From a virus (Duplodnaviria; Caudoviricetes): a stretch of DNA of 64,000 bases. The notes below the pieces were generated by a model. That model had not been told where the DNA came from, searched no databases, and saw only the letters and a list, made by a program, of their open reading frames with translations. The DNA is taken from positions 56,786 through 120,785 of the IMG/VR virus record IMGVR_UViG_2529292751_000006. The stretch is one strand, 5' to 3'. Shown here piece by piece: positions 1-13,702 of the stretch. Positions within the stretch are counted from its first letter, which is position 1; every line of letters begins with the position of its first letter. A program made the translations under genes and the position numbers.

Positions 1-290
1 TAAATATAAGTTGCACCATCTTTCATACCAGTATCAGTGTATGTAGTTGTTGAAGCATTAACAGAGCCAACTAATGCAAACGTTCCACCTGATGTTTTCT
101 TTCTAAAGATGCGATAACCTTGTAAATCATCAATTACAGTATCATCAGCATTCTTTGTAACAGCAGACCAAGTTAGATTTACTTTACCTTGGTTTACAGT
201 ATAAGCTAATCCTGTTGCTTTACCTGGAGCAACACTATCACCAGCTGTAGCAAAGGCTTGAACAGAATATAAGGATTCTAAAGCACTCAT
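1..290 (-). CDS. Fibronectin type III domain virion protein (partial, runs off the left end)
   Basis: Manually translated MSALESLYSVQAFATAGDSVAPGKATGL...VNLTWSAV...GYRIFRK...YTDTG; RBS GAGGTG before ATG at 290. Confidence 0.75.
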   Translation of the reverse strand, partial: MSALESLYSVQAFATAGDSVAPGKATGLAYTVNQGKVNLTWSAVTKNADDTVIDDLQGYRIFRKKTSGGTFALVGSVNASTTTYTDTGMKDGATYI

Positions 291-322
291 TACTTTCACC
301 TCTTATTTGTATTTTATATATG

Positions 323-820
323 TTAAGCTACATTTTCATAGCTAAACAGTTTTGTTAAGTATGGTGATGCCGCCAATTGTCCAGGAGTTACATCTCCATC
401 TTCACAATTCGGAACAAGATCAATTCCAATATCGTTATAAATGTTATCAACAATTTCTGAGCAAACAACTTTATTTGCTTCTTCAAAAACCGTAGAAGTA
501 TGAAACACCTTTTGCAATGCAAATGAAATAATATGTCTCCAATCATAACCTTTATTAAGTTTTGCTCTTCGAATTGCTTGTTTAATAATTTTTATTCTTT
601 GCTCACCAGTAAGTCCCTTTGTATAACGATAAATATCGTATACTTCATGTTTCATAGGGCGTATAGCTAGGTCTTTATTAATATCAATTTCTAATATTAA
701 ATCCGCTGCCACTATCAGCCCAACATGTGTATAATCTGAGCCTGTAACCCACCTTATTAATCTAGAGATAATAGGTGTATTGCCTTTCACTAAAACAATA
801 TCTCCTGTTTGTAGCTTCAC
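323..820 (-). CDS. Permuted papain-like NlpC/P60 (YiiX/YebB-like) amidase
   Basis: GDIVLV, THVGL (His first), GYDW, CSE (Cys last), TPGQL. Confidence 0.85.
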   Translation of the reverse strand: MKLQTGDIVLVKGNTPIISRLIRWVTGSDYTHVGLIVAADLILEIDINKDLAIRPMKHEVYDIYRYTKGLTGEQRIKIIKQAIRRAKLNKGYDWRHIISFALQKVFHTSTVFEEANKVVCSEIVDNIYNDIGIDLVPNCEDGDVTPGQLAASPYLTKLFSYENVA

Positions 821-850
821 AGAATAACCTCCCTCCTGCGATTCTAATAA

Positions 851-879
851 ATTATATACTGATTAAACTCTACATACAA
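851..879 (-). promoter_or_regulatory. Putative sigma-A promoter for the YiiX-like gene
   Basis: TTGTAT-17 nt-TATAAT on the minus strand, upstream of the GGAGG RBS. Confidence 0.55.
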
Positions 880-898
880 AATGCATAGGAAGCCATTG

Positions 899-1345
899 TC
901 AGACAGTTCCCATGATATTTTGCTTCCTAGCTATATGTTCTTTTCTATTTTCTAATATTTCTTTCGCTTTTGCTTCTGCATATCCCATATAGTCAAATAA
1001 CCAATCAGATTTAGCAAGGGATGTATCTGTGATTTGATGCATACTTGCTATATGTTCTAAATTCTGTTCGATTTCTTTCTCATCCACTGAGAGACTCAAA
1101 CCATTTACTTTTTTATTCATTATTCGCATAAAGCCAAACAAAACAAACTCTAGTGTGGATGATCCTATGTTAGGATTTATTTTTTCTGAAGCCATATTGA
1201 ATAATATCTGATTTACTTTTATTTGTTCTTCTTCAGATAGATTATTAAAGTTTTCTGCATTAATTTCTCCTGACAGAATCCTAGATTCTAGCGTCTCTTC
1301 TTTTCTTACATCATCTGATACAAATGAAATACGTTCTCTAACCAT
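899..1345 (-). CDS. Hypothetical helical protein, possibly a fibre assembly chaperone
   Basis: 148-aa ORF with AAGGAG RBS directly after the fibre cassette. Confidence 0.6.
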   Translation of the reverse strand: MVRERISFVSDDVRKEETLESRILSGEINAENFNNLSEEEQIKVNQILFNMASEKINPNIGSSTLEFVLFGFMRIMNKKVNGLSLSVDEKEIEQNLEHIASMHQITDTSLAKSDWLFDYMGYAEAKAKEILENRKEHIARKQNIMGTV

Positions 1346-1364
1346 ACTTAATCTCTCCTTTGTT

Positions 1365-2456
1365 TTATGCCCATGTTAATGAGTAGTTCTCTAGTTCCAC
1401 ATTAGCTGGCAATTCTATCTTCAATTTTAATTTCTTTCCTTTTGGGTGAGCTTTATCATCAAATATGAAAAGCTCCTCAGGTAAAATCGCTATCCAAGTT
1501 TCACCGTTATCACGAGAAATATAATAATTTATGTTCTTGGTGCTTTCAGGGATTTCTGCGCCCATCATTTCTATTTCGGCAATATTCGGTAAGGTATGCT
1601 CTCCAGAAATTTCAGTAATCAATAATCTATAATATTTAAAAGCACTTCTATTTTCAAGAATATACTCCTTCTTTTCTCTTTTATTAAATTTGGTGCCTTC
1701 AACCAAATGAAGATCGCTATATTCCTTTCCGTTAATACTCCCTTGGAATTTCCAGCTAACTGGATGAAAGCTATCAGAGTTCGCTTCACCTTTAATAGTA
1801 TACTTGCCAATTACAGTTAATCCTGTGAATTTATAACCAATCCAGCTTGGATCAGGTCCGTAAACAAAATTAGCGCCCCATATTGAATCAACATTCCCAT
1901 CAAAAGCCTCATATGCAGAAGTATGAGGTTTTTCTCCTTGATTTGTATTACTAGCAAACGCTTCTCCAGAAGGAGTTATATTGGAAGTCATTTTTGGGAT
2001 TAAGTTCTTATCTGAAGATGCAGAGGCTTCTTTTACATTAGCGATTAAAATAAGCTTAGAAGGAATACTCTCCAACTCTTCAGTAGTTGTTTCAATAACA
2101 CATTCTTCAGTTGCTATTAATGACCCTTGCTCAGGATTATGAATATAACCTTTACTCTTTTCTGCATCAATTCCACTTACATCTAATAGATCATCAAACA
2201 TCATATTTTGCATATTGTATTTTAGAGTTTTAGCAATGCTATTTAATTTAACATGTGCCTTCATAATGTTTACCGCATCATGAACAATAAGCTTATTTGC
2301 TCTTAATGACAAACCTTCTAAGTATTTTTCTAAACTATCAATACGCTCTTTTACGTTTATAAATTTACCTTCTACACCAGAAGATAATGTTTGATTACGT
2401 AAGCTGGATTCTGCATCTTTTGTTTTATTCGCAATACCATAACTAATAGTATCCAT
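1365..2456 (-). CDS. Fibre/receptor-binding protein with a discoidin (F5/8 type C-like) domain
   Basis: LIPKMTSN..AYEAFDG..W..WIGYKF..WKFQGS..YYRL..IAEIEM; shares N- and C-terminal modules with neighbours. Confidence 0.75.
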   Translation of the reverse strand: MDTISYGIANKTKDAESSLRNQTLSSGVEGKFINVKERIDSLEKYLEGLSLRANKLIVHDAVNIMKAHVKLNSIAKTLKYNMQNMMFDDLLDVSGIDAEKSKGYIHNPEQGSLIATEECVIETTTEELESIPSKLILIANVKEASASSDKNLIPKMTSNITPSGEAFASNTNQGEKPHTSAYEAFDGNVDSIWGANFVYGPDPSWIGYKFTGLTVIGKYTIKGEANSDSFHPVSWKFQGSINGKEYSDLHLVEGTKFNKREKKEYILENRSAFKYYRLLITEISGEHTLPNIAEIEMMGAEIPESTKNINYYISRDNGETWIAILPEELFIFDDKAHPKGKKLKLKIELPANVELENYSLTWA

Positions 2457-2471
2457 TTAGCACCATCCTTT

Positions 2472-3890
2472 CTATAGCCATGAGTATGAAATTGCATGAA
2501 GCTCTTTTCTGTTTTTTAGAACGACCTTAACAAGTAATTCTTTACCCTCTGGGAGTTTATCTAAACTAACAAGCTTATCTTTCTCAATCCTCATCCATGA
2601 ATCATTATTACGAGATACATAATATTCTAGACTATCTTCTACATTATCTTCAGTAACTGATGACAATAAAAACAGTGTAGGAATAGTCTCTATAGACTCA
2701 ACGGTTGTAATCAATATAGCTGCCTGTGTCTTGTCCTTTGGCGTTACTTTATGATTTTGCTGATCATGAATAACATTCTTTGAATTTATCAAATCAATGC
2801 CAGTGCTATCACCAAAATCATCTATAATCATATCTTTCATGTTATAACGCTTTTTATCCAAAAGTGAATTTACTCTTAAATTATGTTTATTGAGATTTAT
2901 ATGGATATTCGTTTCTAAGTCTGATACACGATTAGGCAATGGACGATTCTGATAAGAGATTGCCACATTATTAAACTTATAGGCTTTATCAAGAACAGTG
3001 ACTTGTATTTGTAAGTCCTTTGAAAACTTACTTACTATTTCAAAACTATCTCCTACATCAATAAAATCATCTGTTGTTTTTACAGACACTTTTACTTTGT
3101 CTCTTGGTAATTCTGCTGCTACATCATTATCAAAGTAAAACTCCAATTCATCAATATTAACAGGAAAGACTTCGCCCTCTTGGAGCCCATTTGTTTCTGA
3201 AACCCAAAGTACATAGGCCCTGTATTCTGAATTGTTTTTAAAAGAGTACTCTCTTTCTTCATACTCACCCCAGTTCACTTGATTTACTTGTTTATCAAGG
3301 TCAATCCATTCATTAGTACCTAACGGTAGCCCTCTAAATATCCAGCTCTTTGGTGATTGATTTACATACTGCGGATTATTTCGAGCTCTGATTTTATACT
3401 TATTTACAACTTTTGTTATAGTTGCCCACTCATACATAATATAATGTGGAAGAGCTGCATTCTCAGCTGATTGCCATCCTCTTCCTTCGTTTCTCATCCC
3501 ATCAAATGCTTTAGCAGGATTATAGTTGTCACCAACGCTTCTAGATGAACTCGCACTAACAATTCCACCTTTTGCTAGGTTTTCGCTTTTTGACATTAAT
3601 GATCCTGTAACTTTTAATGCTTCTAACTCCAATGCATCTTCTCCTAAATGAATTATATTAGAAGTCCAAACACCATTAGTGATGCTACCTTCTTGAGCTG
3701 AAACAACCTTAATTTTATCAATCAATCCTTGTCGCTTCTTTTCTAATTCATCTATACGAGCTTTAACATTAGCAAAGGTCCCTTTTACATCTTTGTCTCC
3801 ATTTTTGTAGTCACCTGTACCTAGACGCTTATTCAGTGAATCTAGATTCTTCCTTCCTTGCATTGCTTTAGAATAACTTACAATATCCAT
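2472..3890 (-). CDS. Fibre/receptor-binding protein with a discoidin domain
   Basis: KAFDG..GWQS..PKSWIFRG..IDELEF; C-terminal ISYSWL module. Confidence 0.75.
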   Translation of the reverse strand: MDIVSYSKAMQGRKNLDSLNKRLGTGDYKNGDKDVKGTFANVKARIDELEKKRQGLIDKIKVVSAQEGSITNGVWTSNIIHLGEDALELEALKVTGSLMSKSENLAKGGIVSASSSRSVGDNYNPAKAFDGMRNEGRGWQSAENAALPHYIMYEWATITKVVNKYKIRARNNPQYVNQSPKSWIFRGLPLGTNEWIDLDKQVNQVNWGEYEEREYSFKNNSEYRAYVLWVSETNGLQEGEVFPVNIDELEFYFDNDVAAELPRDKVKVSVKTTDDFIDVGDSFEIVSKFSKDLQIQVTVLDKAYKFNNVAISYQNRPLPNRVSDLETNIHINLNKHNLRVNSLLDKKRYNMKDMIIDDFGDSTGIDLINSKNVIHDQQNHKVTPKDKTQAAILITTVESIETIPTLFLLSSVTEDNVEDSLEYYVSRNNDSWMRIEKDKLVSLDKLPEGKELLVKVVLKNRKELHAISYSWL

Positions 3891-3911
3891 TGTTTCACTC
3901 CTTTCTTTTTG

Positions 3912-4970
3912 TTAAGCCCAAGCATAAGAGATTGCTGTTAAGGTTGCTGAATCTGTTGGCAAATTAATGCGGATTTTAAGTTGTTTACCAGATTGTGTTG
4001 AGATATCTATTACATCCCCTGATTGAAAGGCATTCCAAGTACTTCCGTTATCTAAAGAATATTGGAATGTGCATTCTTGATGATCTGCTGTTATGACAAG
4101 TGTTTTGCGATATACTGGTAACTCTTCTGTATCCGTCTCTATCATACCAGTTCCACGATATAATTTATCTTCTGAATTATAGAGATAATGCTGTGAAATG
4201 CTTGCTGCAAATTGCTTTTCAGTTTCTGTATAAGCTAGTATCTTAGAATTACTCGGGAGTGCTTTCCATTGTTCCTCTGTAATGCTATTTAATGAAAACA
4301 TACCATGGTCTTTAAACATTTCGTATGTGACTGGTGCTGTGCCTACATCTTCCCATATGCTATTAATTTTTTTGATTATATTTTCAGATTGAATGAGAAA
4401 CATTTGGATATTAGGTATTTTCACGTCATTATATAATCCGACTGGATCATTTGATACATCTGCGAATTTAGAATCAATATTATTAATCTTGAACCCTGTT
4501 ATTCCAAGTTCAGTAAATCTGACTTCGCTACTTCCTGACCCAATACTAATTCCCCCGTTATCTTTAAAGTAATAGCGAATACCATTACAAAATATCCAAC
4601 AGTCAATAGGACCATAAATCATTCTAACTTTGTCCTCATTGTTGTTTTCTACTCGTTTCCATTGATTTGTATCTGTATCACGGTATTCGACATAGGTAAT
4701 AAAATCCTCCTTCCCAAGACCCTCATCAGGCCATCCATATGGTTTGATTTTTGTAATAAGAACAGGAAAATCAAACTCAATTCCCATCCAAGCAGAAGTG
4801 GCTTCTCTTGCAAACCAAAAAGAACGATCAGAAGTACTTTTGTTCCCATCATTTAATGAAGACGGATTATAACTGCTGCTTGTAACCCATGGTGGTGATG
4901 ATTTTGCTACGCCTATTGTTTGCAAATTATCATCATATATTTCCTTGTCATTAAAATCAATACGTGACAT
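3912..4970 (-). CDS. Fibre protein with a divergent discoidin-like N-terminal domain
   Basis: SLNDG..FW..WMGIEF..FTELGI; central FKDHGM module; C-terminal ISYAWA module. Confidence 0.65.
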   Translation of the reverse strand: MSRIDFNDKEIYDDNLQTIGVAKSSPPWVTSSSYNPSSLNDGNKSTSDRSFWFAREATSAWMGIEFDFPVLITKIKPYGWPDEGLGKEDFITYVEYRDTDTNQWKRVENNNEDKVRMIYGPIDCWIFCNGIRYYFKDNGGISIGSGSSEVRFTELGITGFKINNIDSKFADVSNDPVGLYNDVKIPNIQMFLIQSENIIKKINSIWEDVGTAPVTYEMFKDHGMFSLNSITEEQWKALPSNSKILAYTETEKQFAASISQHYLYNSEDKLYRGTGMIETDTEELPVYRKTLVITADHQECTFQYSLDNGSTWNAFQSGDVIDISTQSGKQLKIRINLPTDSATLTAISYAWA

Positions 4971-5819
4971 TTATTTCACCTCTACTTTCTTTATATTTGT
5001 TATGGATGCAAGATTTAATTCAGACACCTTACCTGATCCTAATTTTACTGTATTAGAAAACGTAACTTCTCGCTTTTCTTCTCCTGCACCTGAAGAAGAA
5101 ATAATTTTCATATTATCCGTTTCAAACGTATCTATTACCATGTCATGCATTTTATATTTTTCTGATTTAAGTAATGCATTACTTTTGAAATTGAGTTTTG
5201 CCATATTAATTGCATTAATTCGTTCTAGCTCTTTTAAACGCCCTTCAATCGTTAAGCTATTTGTTTCAATTTTAATGCTATGTAATTTGGGTGAGTTGCT
5301 TACAACTGGCACTGTCTCATATGATAATTTATCAATTAATAACGTATCTGTAACTGCATTTAAATCTAAATAATATGCTAAACGTAACTTCATTTCAGAT
5401 AAAAAGGGCTTCCATGCTACCTGTGTAATGCCATTAAATGTAGCAATATCCATACCTTTTGACTTTACATCATCTAGGTCATTTATATCAACAGAACTCC
5501 AAGATAATCCATTAAATGCTTTCCATGTTGTGCCACTGTCATTAGACGCAATAATCTTGAGGACACTTTCATTTTGTACAGTTCCCGTTAATGTAAAGGA
5601 TTTAATAGGCTTCTCAAATATCATATCTGTTTCTTGCAGAATTAATTGTTGCTTTGGTATAGCAGTTACATTTACAGACGCACTATTAATGCTTGTATCT
5701 TTCGTGAGAACTAGTATTTTAATATTATCTGATTCTAATTGATTCCATGCTGATTCAGGTATTACACTTAAATCTGTCATACCATGTTGCTTAAATTCAT
5801 CTACTGTGGGCATATTCAT
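4971..5819 (-). CDS. Fibre adaptor/structural protein
   Basis: Begins with the FKQHGM..W..L module; SNDSGTTW; coiled-coil motif shared with the 363- and 472-aa proteins; true start may be the second Met (5813). Confidence 0.65.
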   Translation of the reverse strand: MNMPTVDEFKQHGMTDLSVIPESAWNQLESDNIKILVLTKDTSINSASVNVTAIPKQQLILQETDMIFEKPIKSFTLTGTVQNESVLKIIASNDSGTTWKAFNGLSWSSVDINDLDDVKSKGMDIATFNGITQVAWKPFLSEMKLRLAYYLDLNAVTDTLLIDKLSYETVPVVSNSPKLHSIKIETNSLTIEGRLKELERINAINMAKLNFKSNALLKSEKYKMHDMVIDTFETDNMKIISSSGAGEEKREVTFSNTVKLGSGKVSELNLASITNIKKVEVK

Positions 5820-5825
5820 TCCTCC

Positions 5826-7589
5826 TTATATGGTTTGCCATGTGTTATTTTTATATGTTTTTATTATATCACCCTCTTGAATAAGTAATAATTGTTTTCG
5901 TACAGTAAATACTGCACTTTCTTGATATGCAGATGCGGATGATTTATCATCTACTGCTCGTACTCTTATTCTAGCATTTGTAATATTCAATCCATCGGGA
6001 AGCTTATATTCTATTGATACATCCGTTATCTTTGCAACAATTGACACCCAAGAAGAACCGTTGTAGAAATCTACATCGTATGTAATTGCATCCCCCTCTG
6101 GATCCGTAGATGCATCCCATGATACTGTAATGGTTTCACCTGTTAGGTATACACTATTTGTGCTTGCTGTTACTTTTAGATTTGTTGGCACTGTCGGTGG
6201 CATACTTCCTAATTCAACAAGTTGAATTTTAACATATCCATCACCAGATTTTCCTGTTGTTGCAGATGTGTTTTCCCCAGATATATAGGAACCACCACCG
6301 CCACCTCCATATCCATCATTGTAACCGCCGCCACCTCCAGAGTAGCCACCACCGCCGCCGCCAGGATAATTACCATTACCACCACCACCGCCAAATCCAC
6401 CTACACTTGCGTCAGAACGTGCATAACCACCCAGTCCACCATTAATAAAAGCTTGTCCACCTTGTACAATGCTATTTTTTCCATCCGCTTTCCCCCAGCT
6501 TACAACTGTCTGTGTTGCATATTCAACAGATTGTCCCTCACTATAAAAGCCACCACCGGATCCAGCAGGATAACGTCCAGAAGGAACTGATTTCCCTCCT
6601 TGTCCTGATGAACCTCCATACGGAGTCGTCGAACCGTAAGATGATGACCCAGAAGTAGATGTACTTCCATCTCTTCCGTATCCATTAGTATTATCATTAG
6701 AACCGCCACCACCACCACCGCCGACAATCAATGGTATAGTCGATGATAAAACACTCCCTTTGGCTACGAAACTGCCACCACCGCCACCACCACCTTGCGG
6801 ATAGCCCATGCCTTGCTGTCCTACTAATACTTGAATTACGTCACCTTGTTTTAGTTCAATTTTCCCACTAGCAATTGCACCATATCCACCCCTTGCAGTA
6901 AGGCTTGAATTTGATGTTTTCCCACCTTGTGCGCCTGCTGCTGTAATCTGATATTTCCCACTCATAGGAACTATCCATTTCATAATTGTCCCTGAACGAC
7001 CAGTAGACGTTGGGTTGAAATGAAGAGTATCATTTAATGCTAGTGCTTCTGGGTATTTAGTTACACCAGAATTTAAAGTATTAACTGTATGTGTTGTCAT
7101 GATTTCCTCCACTTTGTAAGAGTAATAAGCCGAGAACATTGTTCCTGTTCTTCCCCAGTATACCGTTGCATTTGCAGGAACTACTACACGGATTGCTTCT
7201 CTTGTATCTAGTCTGCTGAAATATCGCTTTTCATTCAAGGTTCTTCCATCGTTATATGCAATTCCGACAATCGTCTTACAGTCTTGGAATCCACCTATTT
7301 GTGAGTCCCCATTCTCTAAGAGAAGAGAAAGCGGTTCGCCAGTATTATTTGTCAATCGAATAACATCCGGACTGCCCGGTGTAGTCCTAAATTCATTGGC
7401 AGGAACATATGTCGGTTCACTAGAATCGTTATAAGCAATTAATGCACCGCCTGTTGATATCTTCTGATATAATGGCTTCCCATCTCCATTCCTGTCGCCT
7501 GCTGTCCAGTGTCCAAACTTATCTGGACCTTTTTCTAAATCCTTAAAATAGAAAGTTTGATTAACAGGAATGCTTGATATGTTGCCCAT
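5826..7589 (-). CDS. Glycine-rich fibre/receptor-binding protein with C-terminal FN3 domain
   Basis: AAGAQGG, GGGGGGSFV and GGFGGGG polyglycine motifs; WDASTDPEGD FN3. Confidence 0.75.
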   Translation of the reverse strand: MGNISSIPVNQTFYFKDLEKGPDKFGHWTAGDRNGDGKPLYQKISTGGALIAYNDSSEPTYVPANEFRTTPGSPDVIRLTNNTGEPLSLLLENGDSQIGGFQDCKTIVGIAYNDGRTLNEKRYFSRLDTREAIRVVVPANATVYWGRTGTMFSAYYSYKVEEIMTTHTVNTLNSGVTKYPEALALNDTLHFNPTSTGRSGTIMKWIVPMSGKYQITAAGAQGGKTSNSSLTARGGYGAIASGKIELKQGDVIQVLVGQQGMGYPQGGGGGGGSFVAKGSVLSSTIPLIVGGGGGGGSNDNTNGYGRDGSTSTSGSSSYGSTTPYGGSSGQGGKSVPSGRYPAGSGGGFYSEGQSVEYATQTVVSWGKADGKNSIVQGGQAFINGGLGGYARSDASVGGFGGGGGNGNYPGGGGGGYSGGGGGYNDGYGGGGGGSYISGENTSATTGKSGDGYVKIQLVELGSMPPTVPTNLKVTASTNSVYLTGETITVSWDASTDPEGDAITYDVDFYNGSSWVSIVAKITDVSIEYKLPDGLNITNARIRVRAVDDKSSASAYQESAVFTVRKQLLLIQEGDIIKTYKNNTWQTI

Positions 7590-7603
7590 TTTATAACCTC
7601 CCT

Positions 7604-8884
7604 TTAAATAGATTCCCAGTTTCCATTTTTATAAGCCTTGCTTACATCTCCATCTTTAATTATATACAACTGCTTGGCTATCGTGAATACGTTACTTGAT
7701 ACATAATCAGATGCATTATTTTCACCATCCATTGCTCGCACTCTAATCTGTGCTTTATCTGTTGCAATTGATGGAAGGATGCAGTCATACTTTGTGTCTG
7801 TAATTTTTGCTGAAATATTTGACCATGCAGAGCCATTATAAAATTCAACCTCATATGTGATAGCACTTCCATCTGGGTCAGTTGATGCATCCCATGATAC
7901 AGAAACTATTTCTCCTGACATGTATATATTATTTACACTTGATGTTACTTTTAGATTTGTCGGTACTGTTGGAGGAAGACCTTCAAGTTTTATTAATTGA
8001 ATCGTGACATAACCATTTGATGAATTATATCCTGCTGATGCAAATTCTGTAACTCTGTCAGGGCTTGCGTATGAACCGCCGCCACCTCCTCCTTCATTGT
8101 TACTTTTTCCACCTGATCCACCAGAATATCCACCGCCACCTCCTCCTCCAAAATAACCGTTACCAGCACCGCCGCCAAATCCACCTTCGCCACCTGCACT
8201 CTGTGCAGATGCAACTCCATATCCTCCTGTTCCACCTCTGCGAAAAGCTTTACCACCTTGAGTGTAACTGCTTGTAGGAGAAGATACAGTTTCCCAGCTT
8301 ACTATTTTACCATCTGACCCATATGAAACAGTGTGCCCATCTGTATAGAATCCGCCGCCACCACCGCCAGGGCAAGATCCACAAGGTATAGAGTTTCCAC
8401 CATTACCGTTAATACCGCCAATTGGTTCGGATTGTCCAGGTGAAGTTCCTCCTGAATTAGATATTGTTCCAACTCCTGCGCTCGTAGTATAACCAGCGCC
8501 GCCACCACCACCAGCAATCATAATTGGAACTGAAGATGACAGGGACCCAAGTGCAGTGAAACTACCGCCACCGCCAGCTCCTCCATTATCATAAGAGCCG
8601 CCAGCATGACCTACTAGCACCTGAACAACTTCCCCTTTCTTTAAGGTTACTGTTCCAGTAGTAGCTATACCTTGACCACCAGAAAATCCTTTCTTAACAG
8701 CAGTTCCACCTACTGCACCTGCTACTGTAAATTTATACTTGCCAGCAGTCGGAACAGTCCATGCCATAATTACTCCATTACGACCATAATCCGTTCTATT
8801 AAATTGAAGAATATCATTTACCAAAAGTGATGCAGGGTATTTTACTACTGCACTTCCAGCAGTGTTTACTGTATAAGTTGCCAT
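7604..8884 (-). CDS. Glycine-rich fibre/receptor-binding protein with C-terminal FN3 domain
   Basis: Paralogue of the 587- and 398-aa proteins with the same motifs. Confidence 0.75.
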   Translation of the reverse strand: MATYTVNTAGSAVVKYPASLLVNDILQFNRTDYGRNGVIMAWTVPTAGKYKFTVAGAVGGTAVKKGFSGGQGIATTGTVTLKKGEVVQVLVGHAGGSYDNGGAGGGGSFTALGSLSSSVPIMIAGGGGGAGYTTSAGVGTISNSGGTSPGQSEPIGGINGNGGNSIPCGSCPGGGGGGFYTDGHTVSYGSDGKIVSWETVSSPTSSYTQGGKAFRRGGTGGYGVASAQSAGGEGGFGGGAGNGYFGGGGGGGYSGGSGGKSNNEGGGGGGSYASPDRVTEFASAGYNSSNGYVTIQLIKLEGLPPTVPTNLKVTSSVNNIYMSGEIVSVSWDASTDPDGSAITYEVEFYNGSAWSNISAKITDTKYDCILPSIATDKAQIRVRAMDGENNASDYVSSNVFTIAKQLYIIKDGDVSKAYKNGNWESI

Positions 8885-8899
8885 ACTATCTTCTCCTTT

Positions 8900-10096
8900 C
8901 TAAATAACTGTCCATACTCCATCTTTATATGTTTTCACATTATCTCCGTCTCGCACTAATGCAAGTTGAGCGGCAACTGTAAACACATTACTCATTGTGT
9001 ATGGAGATGCATCATTTTCATTATCAAATGCTCGAACTCTAAATTGTGCATTGCTTGTATTACAAATTGGAAGTATACCGTCGTATGTTGAACCTGTAAT
9101 ATCTTTTGCAATGCTTACCCATGTAGAACCATTATAGAAATCTATTTCATATCTAATAGCATTTCCTTCAGGGTCTGTTGATGCAGTCCATTCCAATGAT
9201 ATTGTTTCATTGGATAGATTCATACTATTAGAGACTGGCTGTTTTACAAGTGATGGATCTGTTGGTGGTTCATTTGCAGAGCCAATAAATGTAATTTGAA
9301 CTAGACCATGACCTGATTTGTAACCTCTTGTATTTGTTTGATTTTCTCCTATATTATAAGAACCGGCTCCAGCTGAAATAGGGGACCCCATATTACCTGC
9401 GCCGTGACCACCAGTATATCCGCCACCACCGCCACCGCCAGAGTAGCCTCCTCCTCCTCCTCCGCCAAATCCACCATGACAATCGTTATATCCTTTTCCT
9501 CCAAGTCCTCCTGAAAGAAAACGAATACCGGCAGAGCCATAACTTTCACCATATTGGGTATCATTAAAGCCATTTGTATTAAATCCTGCCCCACCTGCTC
9601 CTCCTGTCCCTCCTCCATGACTCGCCCCATTGCCTTCACCTTTTGATGGCTTTCCTCCAGGAACTTCACTTGCCAGTTTTGAAATTTCTCCAGGATATCC
9701 GTCTAAATCCCTCCAAGTATAAGTGTATCCACCACCACCACCTGCAATTAAAAGTGGTAGATTTTCTTTTGCTATAAATGTTCCACCACCACCTCCTCCA
9801 ATTTTATATGTAGACTCACTATAAATTCCTCGATGCCCAATAAGAATACTGAGAACTTGATTTTTTCGCAAGATAAAGTCACCTGACATTAATGCTCCTT
9901 TACCTCCATTAGCACCACCACCTTGAGCACCCATTGCTACAATTCGATATACACCATCATTAGGAATTGTCCATTTTAATATCGCTCCTGATTGCCCAGT
10001 ACTAGTGTTGTAAATATTCATTACATCTCCACGCTTTAAGCTTGCTGGAAATGTTGCTGTGGCACTGCCTGACTGATTCACTGTATAAGTTGTCAT
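8900..10096 (-). CDS. Glycine-rich fibre/receptor-binding protein with C-terminal FN3 domain
   Basis: GAQGG, GGGGGTF, GGFGGGG; WTASTDPEGN FN3. Confidence 0.75.
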   Translation of the reverse strand: MTTYTVNQSGSATATFPASLKRGDVMNIYNTSTGQSGAILKWTIPNDGVYRIVAMGAQGGGANGGKGALMSGDFILRKNQVLSILIGHRGIYSESTYKIGGGGGGTFIAKENLPLLIAGGGGGYTYTWRDLDGYPGEISKLASEVPGGKPSKGEGNGASHGGGTGGAGGAGFNTNGFNDTQYGESYGSAGIRFLSGGLGGKGYNDCHGGFGGGGGGGYSGGGGGGGYTGGHGAGNMGSPISAGAGSYNIGENQTNTRGYKSGHGLVQITFIGSANEPPTDPSLVKQPVSNSMNLSNETISLEWTASTDPEGNAIRYEIDFYNGSTWVSIAKDITGSTYDGILPICNTSNAQFRVRAFDNENDASPYTMSNVFTVAAQLALVRDGDNVKTYKDGVWTVI

Positions 10097-10111
10097 GCTA
10101 TCTTCTCTTTT

Positions 10112-11458
10112 CTAAATAATTTTCCATATGCCATCTTTAAATGACTTCACTATGCTGCCGTCTTGCACTAATAAAAGACGAGTTGAGATGGTGAACGTAT
10201 TACTTACTGTATAATCTGATTTCCCTCCTTTATCATCACCAGCTCTCACACGAAACTGTGCTTTGTCTGTATCTAACTTTGGAAGAATAGCAGAGTAAGA
10301 ATTTGCTGTTACATTTGACGCTACTGGACTCCAAATAGAACCATTATATAATTCTATCTCATATGAAATTGTATCCCCATCTGGGTCAGTAGATTCATCC
10401 CATTGAATCTCCACTGTTTCGCCAGAAAAATTTACACTATTGGTAGAAGGATGTTTTTTAAAAGATAACGGGTTTGAAGGAATTTCATTAATTTCTAATG
10501 AATAATACCCTGCTATACTCGCTATATTATATTCGGGTTCACCAATACGAATAATATCCCCAGTTTTTATTTCAATAATAACTGCTTTCATACCACCGCC
10601 AGAAGGAGAATATGATTTAATAACATTGTTTACTGATAAGAAGGCTTCTATCCCTAAATATGCCGAAGAAGGTCTTCCTCCAAAAATAAACATGTAGCGG
10701 CCACTCGGGTGATTCCATACTTTCTCTATATAAGATCCAGTGCTATTCTTCATTCCATTAACAACTGTAGGGCTAGAAGTATCTCCATAAAATGTAATGC
10801 AAGATTGAGCCGAATCCCATTCCCCTAAAACTTGCTCATTTAATCCTGTATACTTTGACTTACCATTCATTACAAGGCATTGATTAAAAGTCGTAGACTT
10901 TTTCCAACCATCTGCGCTTAATTGAGTATCCGCATTTCCACTATAAGTTGGATAACTTAATCCGAATCTAATATCAGTTCCTTTGACAGTACCTAATGTA
11001 TAATCAAACTTCCACTCAGGAAACTGACCTGCAGATTTACCATACTTTCGACTAGCTGCTGCAATTATTAGATGCTCATTTGATAATCCATTAAATCGTT
11101 CCATACTTCCATGTGTGCCGTAATCAGTATTAGAAGTGTCTTGTGTTATAGTAGTGAGACTCAGTCTGTATGTTTTTCCTGAATACATTTTTACATCTTG
11201 AAAGTCTTTCCATATGTTAGAGCTAACAGTTTTACGATTGTTATCTGTAATTGCCTTATCTTCCATACTTGAAATATCATAAATAACTTGTCCCGTTGAC
11301 TCGTCACTAATTCTAAGGCGATAAATAATAGGGCCATCCCCACCGTTATACGTTTGAACATAGACCTTATTCATGATGATATTTATTTTAGGTGTCACCA
11401 ATACATCGTAAGCGGCACCCCAGTTACCTTCTGGTCTAGGTACTAATAATGAAGGCAT
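10112..11458 (-). CDS. Fibre/receptor-binding protein with an unrelated N-terminal head and the shared C-terminal FN3 module
   Basis: WDESTDPDGD FN3 plus LLVQDG..KSFKDGIW end shared with three downstream genes. Confidence 0.7.
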   Translation of the reverse strand: MPSLLVPRPEGNWGAAYDVLVTPKINIIMNKVYVQTYNGGDGPIIYRLRISDESTGQVIYDISSMEDKAITDNNRKTVSSNIWKDFQDVKMYSGKTYRLSLTTITQDTSNTDYGTHGSMERFNGLSNEHLIIAAASRKYGKSAGQFPEWKFDYTLGTVKGTDIRFGLSYPTYSGNADTQLSADGWKKSTTFNQCLVMNGKSKYTGLNEQVLGEWDSAQSCITFYGDTSSPTVVNGMKNSTGSYIEKVWNHPSGRYMFIFGGRPSSAYLGIEAFLSVNNVIKSYSPSGGGMKAVIIEIKTGDIIRIGEPEYNIASIAGYYSLEINEIPSNPLSFKKHPSTNSVNFSGETVEIQWDESTDPDGDTISYEIELYNGSIWSPVASNVTANSYSAILPKLDTDKAQFRVRAGDDKGGKSDYTVSNTFTISTRLLLVQDGSIVKSFKDGIWKII

Positions 11459-11477
11459 TTGTATTTTCTCCTTTCAT

Positions 11478-11509
11478 GAAGAAAAGCGACCATTCAAAGA
11501 ATGAATCGC
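11478..11509 (-). terminator. Intrinsic terminator-like hairpin upstream of the variable-head cassette
   Basis: GCGATTCATTC-TTT-GAATGGTCGC followed by TTTTCTT. Confidence 0.55.
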
Positions 11510-12559
11510 CTATACTACTTCTATTTTTGTAATGGATTTATATTTTGTTCGGTCAATTGGTATTTCAAATAACACTCCATCTGTGTAATTATCATTCTTA
11601 GTACCATCTATTTTATGAATGGCATTTACTTTTACGTCAGAGCCTACAGACGATAAAAATTCATTTAATACTAGTTTTGTTTCTGGATTTGCCTGGTCAA
11701 ATTCAAATACCTTCTTCTCTCCCATTTCCGTGCCGCCATCAATGATTGCACGGAACTTCAAGAATCTTTTCTGTGGAAGTTTACTTGAATTAAATAGTGT
11801 ATATGGACTAAATGTAATGCCATCATCTGATTCAGCGTATTCAACATCTACAGATCCTCCAAGCTTAAATGAAAGGTAGTTTGTATATCCAGATAAAGTT
11901 TGAAGTCCATAACGCTTATTCGAACCATTTTCCCAAGTGTTGATATAAAAAGGCATAGAGGTTGCTTTAGTGTCACTTGAATTTAATCCATATCCACTAA
12001 AATAGAATTCTATCTTATTTCTTTTAATGCGAATAGCAACAGGAAATCTGTTAGCTGAATTATTGTATTGTCCATAATATATCCAAATCAATGTAACATT
12101 TTCATCAGAATAATATCTGCTATCAAATATTTTAGTATCGGATCCATTAGAACCTTCAAAATCAAATGATATAACAGGATAAAAGCTGCCATTCACGTAA
12201 GAGCGAGAAAAACCAGAATCGTAAAAAGTATTACTAAAGCTAGTAATTTCTTTATTGAAAAATTGTATACTACCTTCTGTGCTGATACCAATCCATTTAG
12301 TAAAAGGAAAATCCTTTGAAACCAAAGGTGTATGCATAATTAAATTCCCAATACTATCGTCACCCCATGCTGTGCCAAATTTTGCATAAGCCGGGTTAGT
12401 TGTGGTACCAAACAAACCTAATGATATGTTTTCTTCATTAGCCCATTCAGCCATTTTATTATACGCAGATGTAGATTCTAAATCCGTACTTAATTCATAA
12501 GTGCCGCTCATGACTTTAGTACCTTTACTTGTCTCATATGAAAAAGGTATACTTACCAA
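11510..12559 (-). CDS. Putative fibre/structural protein
   Basis: 349 aa, beta-rich; ESDDGITFS motif; C-terminal ITKIEVV resembles IKKVEVK of the 282-aa protein. Confidence 0.6.
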   Translation of the reverse strand: MVSIPFSYETSKGTKVMSGTYELSTDLESTSAYNKMAEWANEENISLGLFGTTTNPAYAKFGTAWGDDSIGNLIMHTPLVSKDFPFTKWIGISTEGSIQFFNKEITSFSNTFYDSGFSRSYVNGSFYPVISFDFEGSNGSDTKIFDSRYYSDENVTLIWIYYGQYNNSANRFPVAIRIKRNKIEFYFSGYGLNSSDTKATSMPFYINTWENGSNKRYGLQTLSGYTNYLSFKLGGSVDVEYAESDDGITFSPYTLFNSSKLPQKRFLKFRAIIDGGTEMGEKKVFEFDQANPETKLVLNEFLSSVGSDVKVNAIHKIDGTKNDNYTDGVLFEIPIDRTKYKSITKIEVV

Positions 12560-12572
12560 ATGTCACACCTCC

Positions 12573-12914
12573 TTAATAATTCCTTTGAATTTTTACATCT
12601 AATATCTTTTGCATACCGCTTCCTAAGTCTACTACTTCGGACTCCCATACTCCTGAGCCTACAAATGCTTGTGGCCCAATTTGACGGAGTTGAATACCAT
12701 TATCTTTAAACTCTGCATCATTAAACTGACCTTTATTTAAATCTACTTCATATACTTCTTTTACTTGTAGGTTTGATGCTTGTGCTTCTATCCAATCTAA
12801 CCTTTCATCAACAGAGTTAAATCGACATTCCGCTCCCTCTCCTACCACCATCTCATTGAGCTGCTTAATATCCTGAAAGACTTTACTTGCTTTACTGAAA
12901 GAAATAATCTCCAT
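12573..12914 (-). CDS. Short fibre anchor protein
   Basis: N-terminus MEIISFSKA..F.SV.ERLD and GVWES..DLG shared with the 472-aa protein. Confidence 0.6.
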   Translation of the reverse strand: MEIISFSKASKVFQDIKQLNEMVVGEGAECRFNSVDERLDWIEAQASNLQVKEVYEVDLNKGQFNDAEFKDNGIQLRQIGPQAFVGSGVWESEVVDLGSGMQKILDVKIQRNY

Positions 12915-12925
12915 CTTATTCCCTC

Positions 12926-13702
12926 CTATAGTACAATCACTGTAATAGATGTACCAACAGATTCATTTTTACTTGTATCTACTGCTTTAAGTGTAAATAT
13001 ATGTTCTCCATTTGAAATACCGTTCAATACAATAGATGCACGTTTTGTAGAATCTATTGGAGTTTTAATATTATCAATATAAATATTAATCTTATCTAAG
13101 TCAGCATCTGTAGGGTTTACCCACTCCAGATTTACAACTCCTTGAGATGGAGAACTGCCAACTAGTCCTTTTATATCTGCAGGTGCCGTTACGTCCACTT
13201 CTGTTTGAGTTTTAATGCCTGTGATATTCCCTTTGGTATCATAAGAGTAAGTCTTCGTTACAGCGACCTTTTGCCCTTTATTATTTGCAAATGTTTGAAC
13301 TGATTTGCTTAATTCACCTGCCGCCAAGTTTCTGTAAGAATACTCTACTATCATTTCTTTATCGCCTGTTGTAGTGTGGCGAATGATATTTCCGTATTGC
13401 TCATCATACTCGAATTTTTCATCATAGTTCCCAGAGTCTGTAGTGCCTTTCAAGATTGCAGCTTCTAAATCTCGTTTCAAGTTTTCAATACGCTGGATTG
13501 TTAATATCCCACTGTTTTCATACCCACGGATTAAATCATCCACAACAGCTTTTGTATTATCATCAAATAAATCACTATTGATATGCGTAAATCGATCAAA
13601 CACAGTATCATAGACACCCATTAATTTAATAATGTCATCAATAATTTCTATTAAGCTATCTTCTAAATCATACTTTTGTATTTTTGTTGACGTTTTATTC
13701 AA
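12926..13702 (-). CDS. Virion protein with C-terminal FN3 domain
   Basis: VNLEWVNPTDADL..FTLKAVD..NES; two YD..GNI motifs; GGAGG RBS with TTG start. Confidence 0.65.
   Translation of the reverse strand: MNKTSTKIQKYDLEDSLIEIIDDIIKLMGVYDTVFDRFTHINSDLFDDNTKAVVDDLIRGYENSGILTIQRIENLKRDLEAAILKGTTDSGNYDEKFEYDEQYGNIIRHTTTGDKEMIVEYSYRNLAAGELSKSVQTFANNKGQKVAVTKTYSYDTKGNITGIKTQTEVDVTAPADIKGLVGSSPSQGVVNLEWVNPTDADLDKINIYIDNIKTPIDSTKRASIVLNGISNGEHIFTLKAVDTSKNESVGTSITVIVL

Follow-up and report, generated by a model that had tools for sequence, protein, structure and literature searches.

Could four different fibre heads be served by a single partner protein? The question is raised by a block of fibre genes in the IMG/VR virus record IMGVR_UViG_2529292751_000006, of which we analysed the right-hand 64 kb (hereafter the window, the whole stretch of 64,000 nucleotides (nt); GC about 35%, large genes all on the minus strand). 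The 120,785-bp record is classed as a provirus and is 61% complete. The element is best explained as a large Bacillus cereus-group phage-plasmid of siphovirus type, and the block, located downstream of a 2139-aa (amino acid) tape-measure-like protein and baseplate genes, as its receptor-binding fibre module. Four consecutive genes encode heads of 448, 398, 426 and 587 aa, which presumably bind receptors and which all end in the same short motif. The gene that follows encodes a 282-aa protein, the adaptor, whose N-terminus corresponds to the sequence that directly follows this motif in longer, one-piece relatives. Fission of an ancestrally contiguous module into head genes and an adaptor gene is well supported by sequence comparison, and it raises the prospect that the heads dock on the adaptor through the motif. 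The features concerned are listed below.

448-aa head: 10112..11458, minus strand; N-terminal domain without known family, immunoglobulin (Ig)/FN3-like domain at about residues 324-424, terminal motif at residues 428-448 (10115-10177)
398-aa head: 8900..10096, minus strand; glycine-rich domain (weak PF12810), FN3-like domain, terminal motif at 8903-8965
426-aa head: 7604..8884, minus strand; glycine-rich domain, FN3-like domain, terminal motif at 7607-7669
587-aa head: 5826..7589, minus strand; 163 additional residues at the N-terminus, then glycine-rich domain, FN3-like domain and terminal motif at 5829-5891
587/282 junction: 5811..5828, minus strand; TAA at 5826-5828, GGAGGA at 5820-5825, ATG AAT ATG at 5811-5819, in a single frame
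282-aa adaptor: 4971..5819, minus strand; helical part at residues 3-48, then beta-sandwich, long helix and short C-terminal tail
352-aa protein: 3912..4970, minus strand; N-terminal part jelly-roll-like, intact module at residues 188-251 (4218-4409), then a C-terminal beta-sandwich

The terminal motif of the heads and the N-terminus of the adaptor

All four heads stop directly after a 21-residue, three-strand motif, L-L-(V/I)-x-(D/E)-G-x3-K-x-(Y/F)-K-x3-W-x2-I, and their C-termini read ...LLLVQDGSIVKSFKDGIWKII (448 aa), ...LALVRDGDNVKTYKDGVWTVI (398 aa), ...LYIIKDGDVSKAYKNGNWESI (426 aa) and ...LLLIQEGDIIKTYKNNTWQTI (587 aa). An original prediction, made from the letters of the window, had placed these open reading frames (ORFs) and sequence strings correctly, all on the minus strand; the terminal pattern it gave is exact in three of the four heads, while the 398-aa head has A at the first position. 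It had also labelled the segment before the motif as FN3. A Pfam scan returned no PF00041 (fibronectin type III) match at E<=0.1 in the approximately 100 residues before the motif and only weak Ig-like matches (Kre9_KNH, DUF4998, SusE, Ig_Rha78A_N), so the label holds in the looser sense of Ig/FN3-like, as indicated by these matches and by 'Hoc-like' matches in PHROG. Close homologues are named 'fibronectin type III domain-containing' by their sources, and P0213 and P0221 have precomputed PF00041 assignments. The segment probably adopts an FN3/Ig-like fold, judging from these similarities.

The remaining parts of the heads are less uniform. The ALK/LTK glycine-rich domain PF12810 (cut-off 24.5 bits) scored above its cut-off in the 587-aa head (27.9 bits) and below it in the 398-aa and 426-aa heads (20.6 and 13.7 bits), with no match in the 448-aa head. 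A 401-position family of glycine-rich heads ending at the motif, phrog_22713, matched the 398-aa head over its whole length (1-398 vs 1-401, E = 3e-148), the 426-aa head (E = 9e-126) and residues 164-587 of the 587-aa head (vs 1-401, E = 3e-150); in the 448-aa head, only residues 324-448 were matched (vs 278-401, E = 3e-41). Of 120 homologues listed for the 398-aa head, 35 have the motif, which is terminal in every one; the remaining 85, glycine-rich proteins of a generic kind, lack it. The motif is the sole element common to all heads, as heads of 223, 269 and 317 aa in NZ_CP132202.1 keep it without an FN3-like domain.

The 282-aa ORF begins MNMPTVDEFKQHGMTDLSVIPESAWNQL (also given as MNMPTVDEFKQHGMTDL), its sandwich contains an Asp-box-like SNDSGTTW, and its long helix reads LTIEGRLKELERINAINMAKLNFKSNALL. 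In phrog_5811 (571 positions, function unknown), the 282-aa protein matched positions 290-571 (E = 4.7e-155), the last 23 residues of the 587-aa head (565-587) matched positions 264-286 (E = 1.7e-3), and the 352-aa protein matched positions 265-402 (E = 4e-6). The 352-aa protein had been predicted to contain both parts contiguously, and we located them at residues 188-251; P0001, a natural fused relative, aligned with it across the junction in BLASTP (241-366 vs 190-315, E = 2e-9).

A profile was then built from 67 of 100 representatives of the adaptor family in which the module is internal to a longer chain, all at most 48% identical to the adaptor. The other 33 were set aside on visual inspection, namely two close relatives, eight whose helical units are in tandem, and a remainder whose upstream segments are irregular. 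When the window's stop-to-stop ORFs of 50 aa or more (256 in all) were searched with this profile, the 352-aa protein, the adaptor and the four heads took the first six ranks:

352-aa protein: profile 3-68, E = 3e-21, internal, residues 188-251
282-aa adaptor: profile 30-72, E = 4e-15, N-terminus, ORF residues 6-48
587-aa head: profile 4-25, E = 2e-4, last 22 residues
448-aa head: profile 5-25, E = 5.5e-3, last 21 residues
398-aa head: profile 7-25, E = 6.7e-3, last 19 residues
426-aa head: profile 3-25, E = 5.3e-2, last 23 residues, the weakest of the four heads

The seventh match (E = 0.065) was not terminal. A search of all 514 ORFs of the 120.8-kb record recovered the same six proteins, along with a 211-aa ORF (E = 4.6e-4) that matched through weak, non-C-terminal stretches, and no further terminal match or other acceptor-like ORF. 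The original prediction had named a profile alignment as the test of the similarity to the 352-aa segment; this protein ranked first, and the heads and the adaptor matched complementary parts of the profile. With the heads ending at profile position 25 and the adaptor taking over at 30, the break is placed in a linker of four residues (consensus G-T-A-P, positions 25-30) between motif and helical part. Donor, acceptor and intact classes are also present in seven related loci. Within the sandwich of the adaptor, residues 97-147 (window 5380-5530) weakly repeat the unit of W..V strand and helices (profile 10-61, domain E = 0.045; also seen by BLASTP), a hint that the strands and the helices belong to a single recurring unit.

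One-piece relatives, split junctions and heads per adaptor

To place the adaptor among its relatives, we searched a profile of nine free adaptors against cluster representatives, which gave 913 matches at E<=1e-3, 450 of them at E<=1e-10. Contiguity was counted in the best 150 of the 913, of which 104 had a match starting at profile position 9 or earlier; the 46 starting later were not counted. In 100 of these 104, the point where the adaptor starts is internal to a longer chain, and in the other four (P0018, P0040, P0043 and P0160, the last possibly a fragment) it is the protein N-terminus. By regular expression, the sequence directly upstream in the 100 internal cases holds the full motif in 43, only the last strand, W..(I/V/L), in 34, and neither in 23; by eye, many members of the latter two groups have a degenerate motif, an inserted large domain or a tandem helical unit. 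In P0002, P0003 and P0007, for instance, a large domain (discoidin, LamG) is inserted between motif strands two and three. The region upstream of the motif varies (CE2_N-like, LamG, discoidin, glycine-rich), whereas the downstream part is constant. The claim that an ancestral domain was split therefore stands in that a contiguous module is broken at the same point each time, as seen from the internal position in 100 of 104 and from single-codon fusions. Its description of the motif as 'half of a domain' fares less well, with the break in the G-T-A-P linker; the motif may be an autonomous three-strand unit plus linker.

The junction between the 587-aa head and the adaptor reads in frame as had been predicted, ...W Q T I followed by the stop (ACC ATA TAA GGA GGA ATG AAT ATG). 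The true start of the adaptor is likely the second ATG, 6 nt after GGAGGA, and in relatives the adaptor is annotated or called as a 280-aa protein that begins MPTV. In relatives whose adaptors are 88-94% identical to that of the window, the same codon occurs as a stop or as a sense codon; the variants found, two fused representatives among them, are:

Window: TAA GGA GGA ATG AAT ATG; split
G066:C2 module 1: same string as the window, behind a different 425-aa head; split
NZ_CP132202.1 module 1: TAG AAC GGA GGA ATG AAT ATG, the head in front being the 223-aa one that has no FN3-like domain; split
Both modules of B. thuringiensis lyx16 p1, and G066:C2 module 2: GAA in place of the stop, giving 557- and 586-aa products; fused
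P0001: E at the junction codon; fused
P0030: Q at the junction codon; fused

TAA is one base from each of GAA, CAA and TAG and may be the central state, as inferred from the codons rather than from a tree. Read as DNA, the three fused genes of lyx16 p1 and G066:C2 keep both GGAGGA and the second ATG 6 nt downstream, through which a free adaptor could be initiated within the fused gene.

The split is old and maintained, by the divergence of free adaptors and by purifying selection on both heads and adaptor in codon comparisons. Free adaptors of 273-281 aa with the same start, M(P/L)T..(E/Q)F, were found at 94, 92, 75, 64, 62, 61 and about 35% identity. In a distant phage from a metagenome-assembled genome (L006), a 194-aa protein ends ...WLVETEETIKYWTGAEWSPVQETG, and a 273-aa adaptor starting MALPTKEQFDQFGM is encoded one gene further on. 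The dN/dS ratio between the window and G066 came to 0.16 in the adaptor and ranged from 0.24 to 0.42 among the head pairs. Close relatives at the DNA level were found in four contig sets, with contigs approximately 92-93% alike across 4971-6200. A megablast search of 3900-11500 against the phage collection gave no match, tblastn of the adaptor against that collection gave seven records, none covering at least 80%, and no related locus for a single protein was found among viral contigs.

The original prediction had called for a count of heads per adaptor in related genomes, and across eight modules we found one to six head-only proteins each:

Window: 4 head-only; adaptor split
G066:C2 module 1: 3 head-only; adaptor split
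G066:C2 module 2: 3 head-only plus a broken piece; adaptor fused
lyx16 p1 module 1: 5 head-only; adaptor fused
lyx16 p1 module 2: 4 head-only; adaptor fused
NZ_CP132202.1 module 1: 4 head-only; adaptor split
NZ_CP132202.1 module 2: 6 head-only; 417-aa adaptor with an N-terminal discoidin domain and the helical part, no motif
L006: 1 head-only; adaptor split

The adaptor lacks a motif in cis in five of the eight modules and is fused in three. In lyx16 p1 (L004/L005), G066:C2 (L016/L017) and NZ_CP132202.1 (L018/L019), two tandem copies of the whole fibre block are present, and their heads differ; the duplicated block comprises proteins of 258, 112 and about 400 aa, the heads, the adaptor and three further fibre proteins, and the window record has one copy.

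Proposed docking of the heads and its alternatives

We propose that the C-terminal motif of each head serves to dock it on the adaptor's N-terminal part, restoring in trans the arrangement that relatives have in cis, and we regard this proposal as evenly poised between right and wrong. A fibre made as one chain in most relatives (head, motif, helical part, sandwich and long helix) would have been broken into two kinds of protein. The 21-residue motif of each head would bind the N-terminal part of the adaptor non-covalently, and one conserved adaptor would carry any of the four heads, three of them glycine-rich and one without known family. New heads would be recombined in just upstream of the adaptor, with the motif travelling with the adaptor gene, and a single stop/sense change would switch the last head between covalent and non-covalent attachment. 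The heads are far more diverse than the adaptor: three of the window heads reach a best identity of 55-61% to the heads of lyx16 p1 and G066:C2, and the 587-aa head reaches 89%, whereas the adaptor is 92-94% identical to its closest relatives. The viability of both the split and the fused state suggests that the C-terminus of the head and the N-terminus of the adaptor are together in the particle. What the sequences show is the complementary positions, the ancestral contiguity, the stop/sense polymorphism, the purifying selection and the counts of heads and adaptors; physical binding and its stoichiometry are putative.

In an AlphaFold2 model of P0001 based on a 78-row alignment, the motif forms three strands (241-246, 249-254 and 257-260) at a predicted local distance difference test score (pLDDT) of 94-96, followed by the linker (82), two short helices and a strand (270-302; 90-94), the sandwich (96-98) and a 27-residue helix (455-481). 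The motif strands are continuous with the helical part and the sandwich. The head scored below 50, with almost no alignment there, and a single-sequence model of the 352-aa protein was unusable (mean pLDDT 34.7). Foldseek comparison of the P0001 model with the PDB gave no match at E<=0.001, the best being a CBM61 sandwich at 0.076; against BFVD, there were four matches at E<=0.001, all to uncharacterised phage proteins.

Several observations weigh against docking. Its main difficulty is that three of the eight modules (lyx16 p1 modules 1 and 2 and G066:C2 module 2) are fused and yet keep three to five head-only genes; because the docking site of a fused adaptor would be occupied in cis, docking there needs an extra assumption, such as a free adaptor made from the internal GGAGGA-ATG. 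In the 417-aa adaptor type (NZ_CP132202.1 module 2; P0020-P0026), discoidin stands directly before the helical part with no motif, so the helical part can exist without a motif in cis. With the break in the linker, the motif may be a small autonomous unit rather than part of a split fold, and its high pLDDT in the P0001 model may partly reflect alignment depth. Finally, we found no structure, Pfam family or paper describing the module: a Pfam scan gave no family covering it, phmmer searches of PDB sequences with the 282-aa and the 352-aa protein gave nothing relevant, ESM Atlas returned unnamed clusters only and no model, and a literature search, with supplements outside its scope, turned up no description of the module or of these fibres.

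The main rival reading, possible though in our judgement unlikely, is that the motif is an autonomous handle and fission occurred at a domain boundary. The heads would then attach to the tail tube, the baseplate, the 349-aa protein or each other, and their adjacency to the adaptor would reflect only ancestry. A break within the linker, head-only genes beside fused adaptors and a discoidin-type adaptor that works without a cis motif are all as this reading would have them, and the PHROGs matched by the FN3-like tails carry annotations of Hoc-like decoration or of virion structural protein. The one-piece family speaks for the opposite, however, since there the motif is tied to the helical part and not to the domains upstream of it, and even the insertions within the motif in P0002, P0003 and P0007 leave it joined to the helical part. 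The stop/sense toggle, moreover, amounts to a tolerated 6-residue tether between motif and adaptor, and the 120.8-kb record offers no other acceptor-like ORF.

Another alternative makes the head-only genes mainly a cassette store, in which the FN3/motif 3' ends serve as crossover sites and only the last head matters for the fibre. The 587-aa head is a mosaic. It is nearest to the lyx16 424-aa head (dS 0.21), while its motif is nearest to that of the G066 425-aa head (dS 0.15 vs 1.38, over only 25 codons), with one protein-level difference from G066 and eight from lyx16. A mosaic break between FN3 and motif indicates that the motif travels with the adaptor gene and that heads are exchanged in front of it. 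The motif beside the adaptor is near-constant across elements behind heads of 587, 425, 223 and about 265 aa, as a store would also have it. A store is nevertheless quite improbable, because every head gene has its own ribosome-binding site and start codon, the ORFs are intact in all four elements under the dN/dS values given above, and the 3' ends of the four head genes are only about 60-80% identical in DNA, without a long identical tract.

Dedicated recombination machinery was likewise not found, in line with the original suggestion that heads diversify 'without invertase or DGR' (diversity-generating retroelement). The 120.8-kb, 61%-complete record contains neither a resolvase/invertase (PF00239) nor a reverse transcriptase (PF00078), tyrosine recombinases being outside this search, and no inverted repeats flank the heads, with a single 21-nt inverted repeat pair within 1-13000. 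Within the scope of this search, a shufflon or a DGR was ruled out.

The spacing of the fibre genes raised a further alternative, that read-through or coupling yields a covalent 587-282 fusion as well as head-head fusions across the in-frame 15-nt spacers of the 448-, 398- and 426-aa genes. Spacers between the nine successive genes from the 349-aa to the 363-aa protein are 51, 15, 15, 14, 6, 0, 21 and 15 nt; seven of the eight are multiples of 3, and the junction is in frame in three variants. The fibre genes thereby fall into two long same-frame runs. We consider read-through very improbable: the stops mix TAA and TAG, the spacers contain ordinary Shine-Dalgarno sites, and in NZ_CP132202.1 module 2 the junction is not in frame. 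Tandem duplication of gene plus spacer explains the frame shared by the two 15-nt spacers, which are homologous; the remaining in-frame spacers may be relics of former fusions. To our knowledge, no read-through signal has been described for Bacillus. Least credible of all, and largely excluded, is that 587/282 is one gene cut by a recent nonsense mutation or sequencing error, with the other heads as unrelated paralogues: an incomplete provirus could be decaying, and TAA is one base from the GAA of relatives, but the identical TAA junction recurs behind a different head in G066:C2, a TAG variant occurs in NZ_CP132202.1, and free adaptors persist down to about 35% identity, with a dN/dS of 0.16 against G066.

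The wider fibre block and comparable systems

In full, the fibre block encodes proteins of 258, 113, 349, 448, 398, 426, 587, 282, 352, 472 and 363 aa, in that order. An alternative genetic code was ruled out, as the stops mix TAA, TAG and TGA and are followed by normal ribosome-binding sites. The 113-, 472- and 363-aa proteins (window 1365-3890 and 12573-12914) share a start segment, M-(D/E)-(I/T)-(I/V)-S-(Y/F). The 472-aa protein repeats the long helix of the adaptor together with a KY.M.DM..D.F segment (E = 4e-7), as does, by eye, the 363-aa protein, and the 352-, 472- and 363-aa proteins have similar C-terminal sandwiches ending ...SY(A/S/T)W(A/L). A possible second terminal docking element, suggested by eye from the endings ...(S)IT.I(K/.)K(V/I)EV(K/V) of both the adaptor (4971-5050) and the 349-aa protein (11510-11590), found no support in BLASTP. 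Just past the block, a 165-aa ORF at 323-820 has a homologue in NZ_CP132202.1 annotated as a YiiX/YebB-like N1pC/P60 cysteine hydrolase and, by this homology, could be a fibre-associated cell-wall hydrolase. Outside the window, positions 1-56785 of the record (G000:C1) contain very large minus-strand ORFs of 2420, 1900, 1686 and 1188 aa.

Related by descent are the one-piece fibre proteins of Bacillota phages and prophages (phrog_5811), in which motif, helical part, sandwich, long helix and a KY.MHDM segment are all present (adaptor homology E = 1e-57 to 1e-85). Examples are P0008 (784 aa), P0005 (1216 aa, a 'discoidin domain-containing protein' of Paenibacillus) and P0007 (682 aa, a 'LamG domain-containing protein' of Parageobacillus). 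In these fibres head and adaptor are one chain, whereas the window and its B. cereus-group relatives have three to six heads as separate proteins that stop at the motif.

Gram-negative podoviruses provide known cases of multi-headed phages and of docking peptides, which are in use to re-target phages, and the docking peptide of the Klebsiella podophage receptor-binding protein (RBP) RBP2 is N-terminal. One report describes branched RBPs in podophages of Klebsiella, namely KP32, K11 and KP34, with a branching domain in RBP1 and a conserved docking peptide in RBP2 (PMC13352976). As described there, several RBPs are mounted on each virion through a short docking element and a conserved acceptor, and the heads are exchangeable, as we propose here from sequence. 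That docking takes place on the branching domain of another complete RBP, whereas here the element would be C-terminal, the adaptor dedicated and the pair derived from fission of a module, with attachment toggling between covalent and non-covalent by one base. Pfam and PHROG scans of ten fibre-region proteins detected no branching-domain family of the Klebsiella type. By analogy of function, the branched RBPs are the nearest known system; the present one is no member of it and may work similarly.

A more distant analogy is offered by chaperone-usher pili, in which donor-strand complementation uses a short beta-strand element from one subunit to complete or extend the fold of the next. Here too, a beta-strand element would join separately made proteins. 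The two are unrelated in sequence and fold, and that the adaptor fold is incomplete without the motif is only conjectural.

Taken further, and with somewhat less than even confidence, the locus may represent a natural 'tag and catcher'. A C-terminal tag, arisen by fission of a widespread fibre module, would let three to six unrelated heads load onto one adaptor, and a stop/sense change with a kept internal start would tether or free the last head. If the adaptor is trimeric, mixed heads on one fibre could give combinatorial host recognition. The system would then be a Gram-positive, siphovirus-type counterpart to the podovirus assemblies, with a C-terminal docking element born by gene fission and a junction found in nature both fused and split. 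Should binding be confirmed, the motif and the adaptor N-terminus would provide a small, portable pair with which to fit new heads to Bacillus phages, as well as a clean natural case of a multidomain fibre breaking into a non-covalent assembly.

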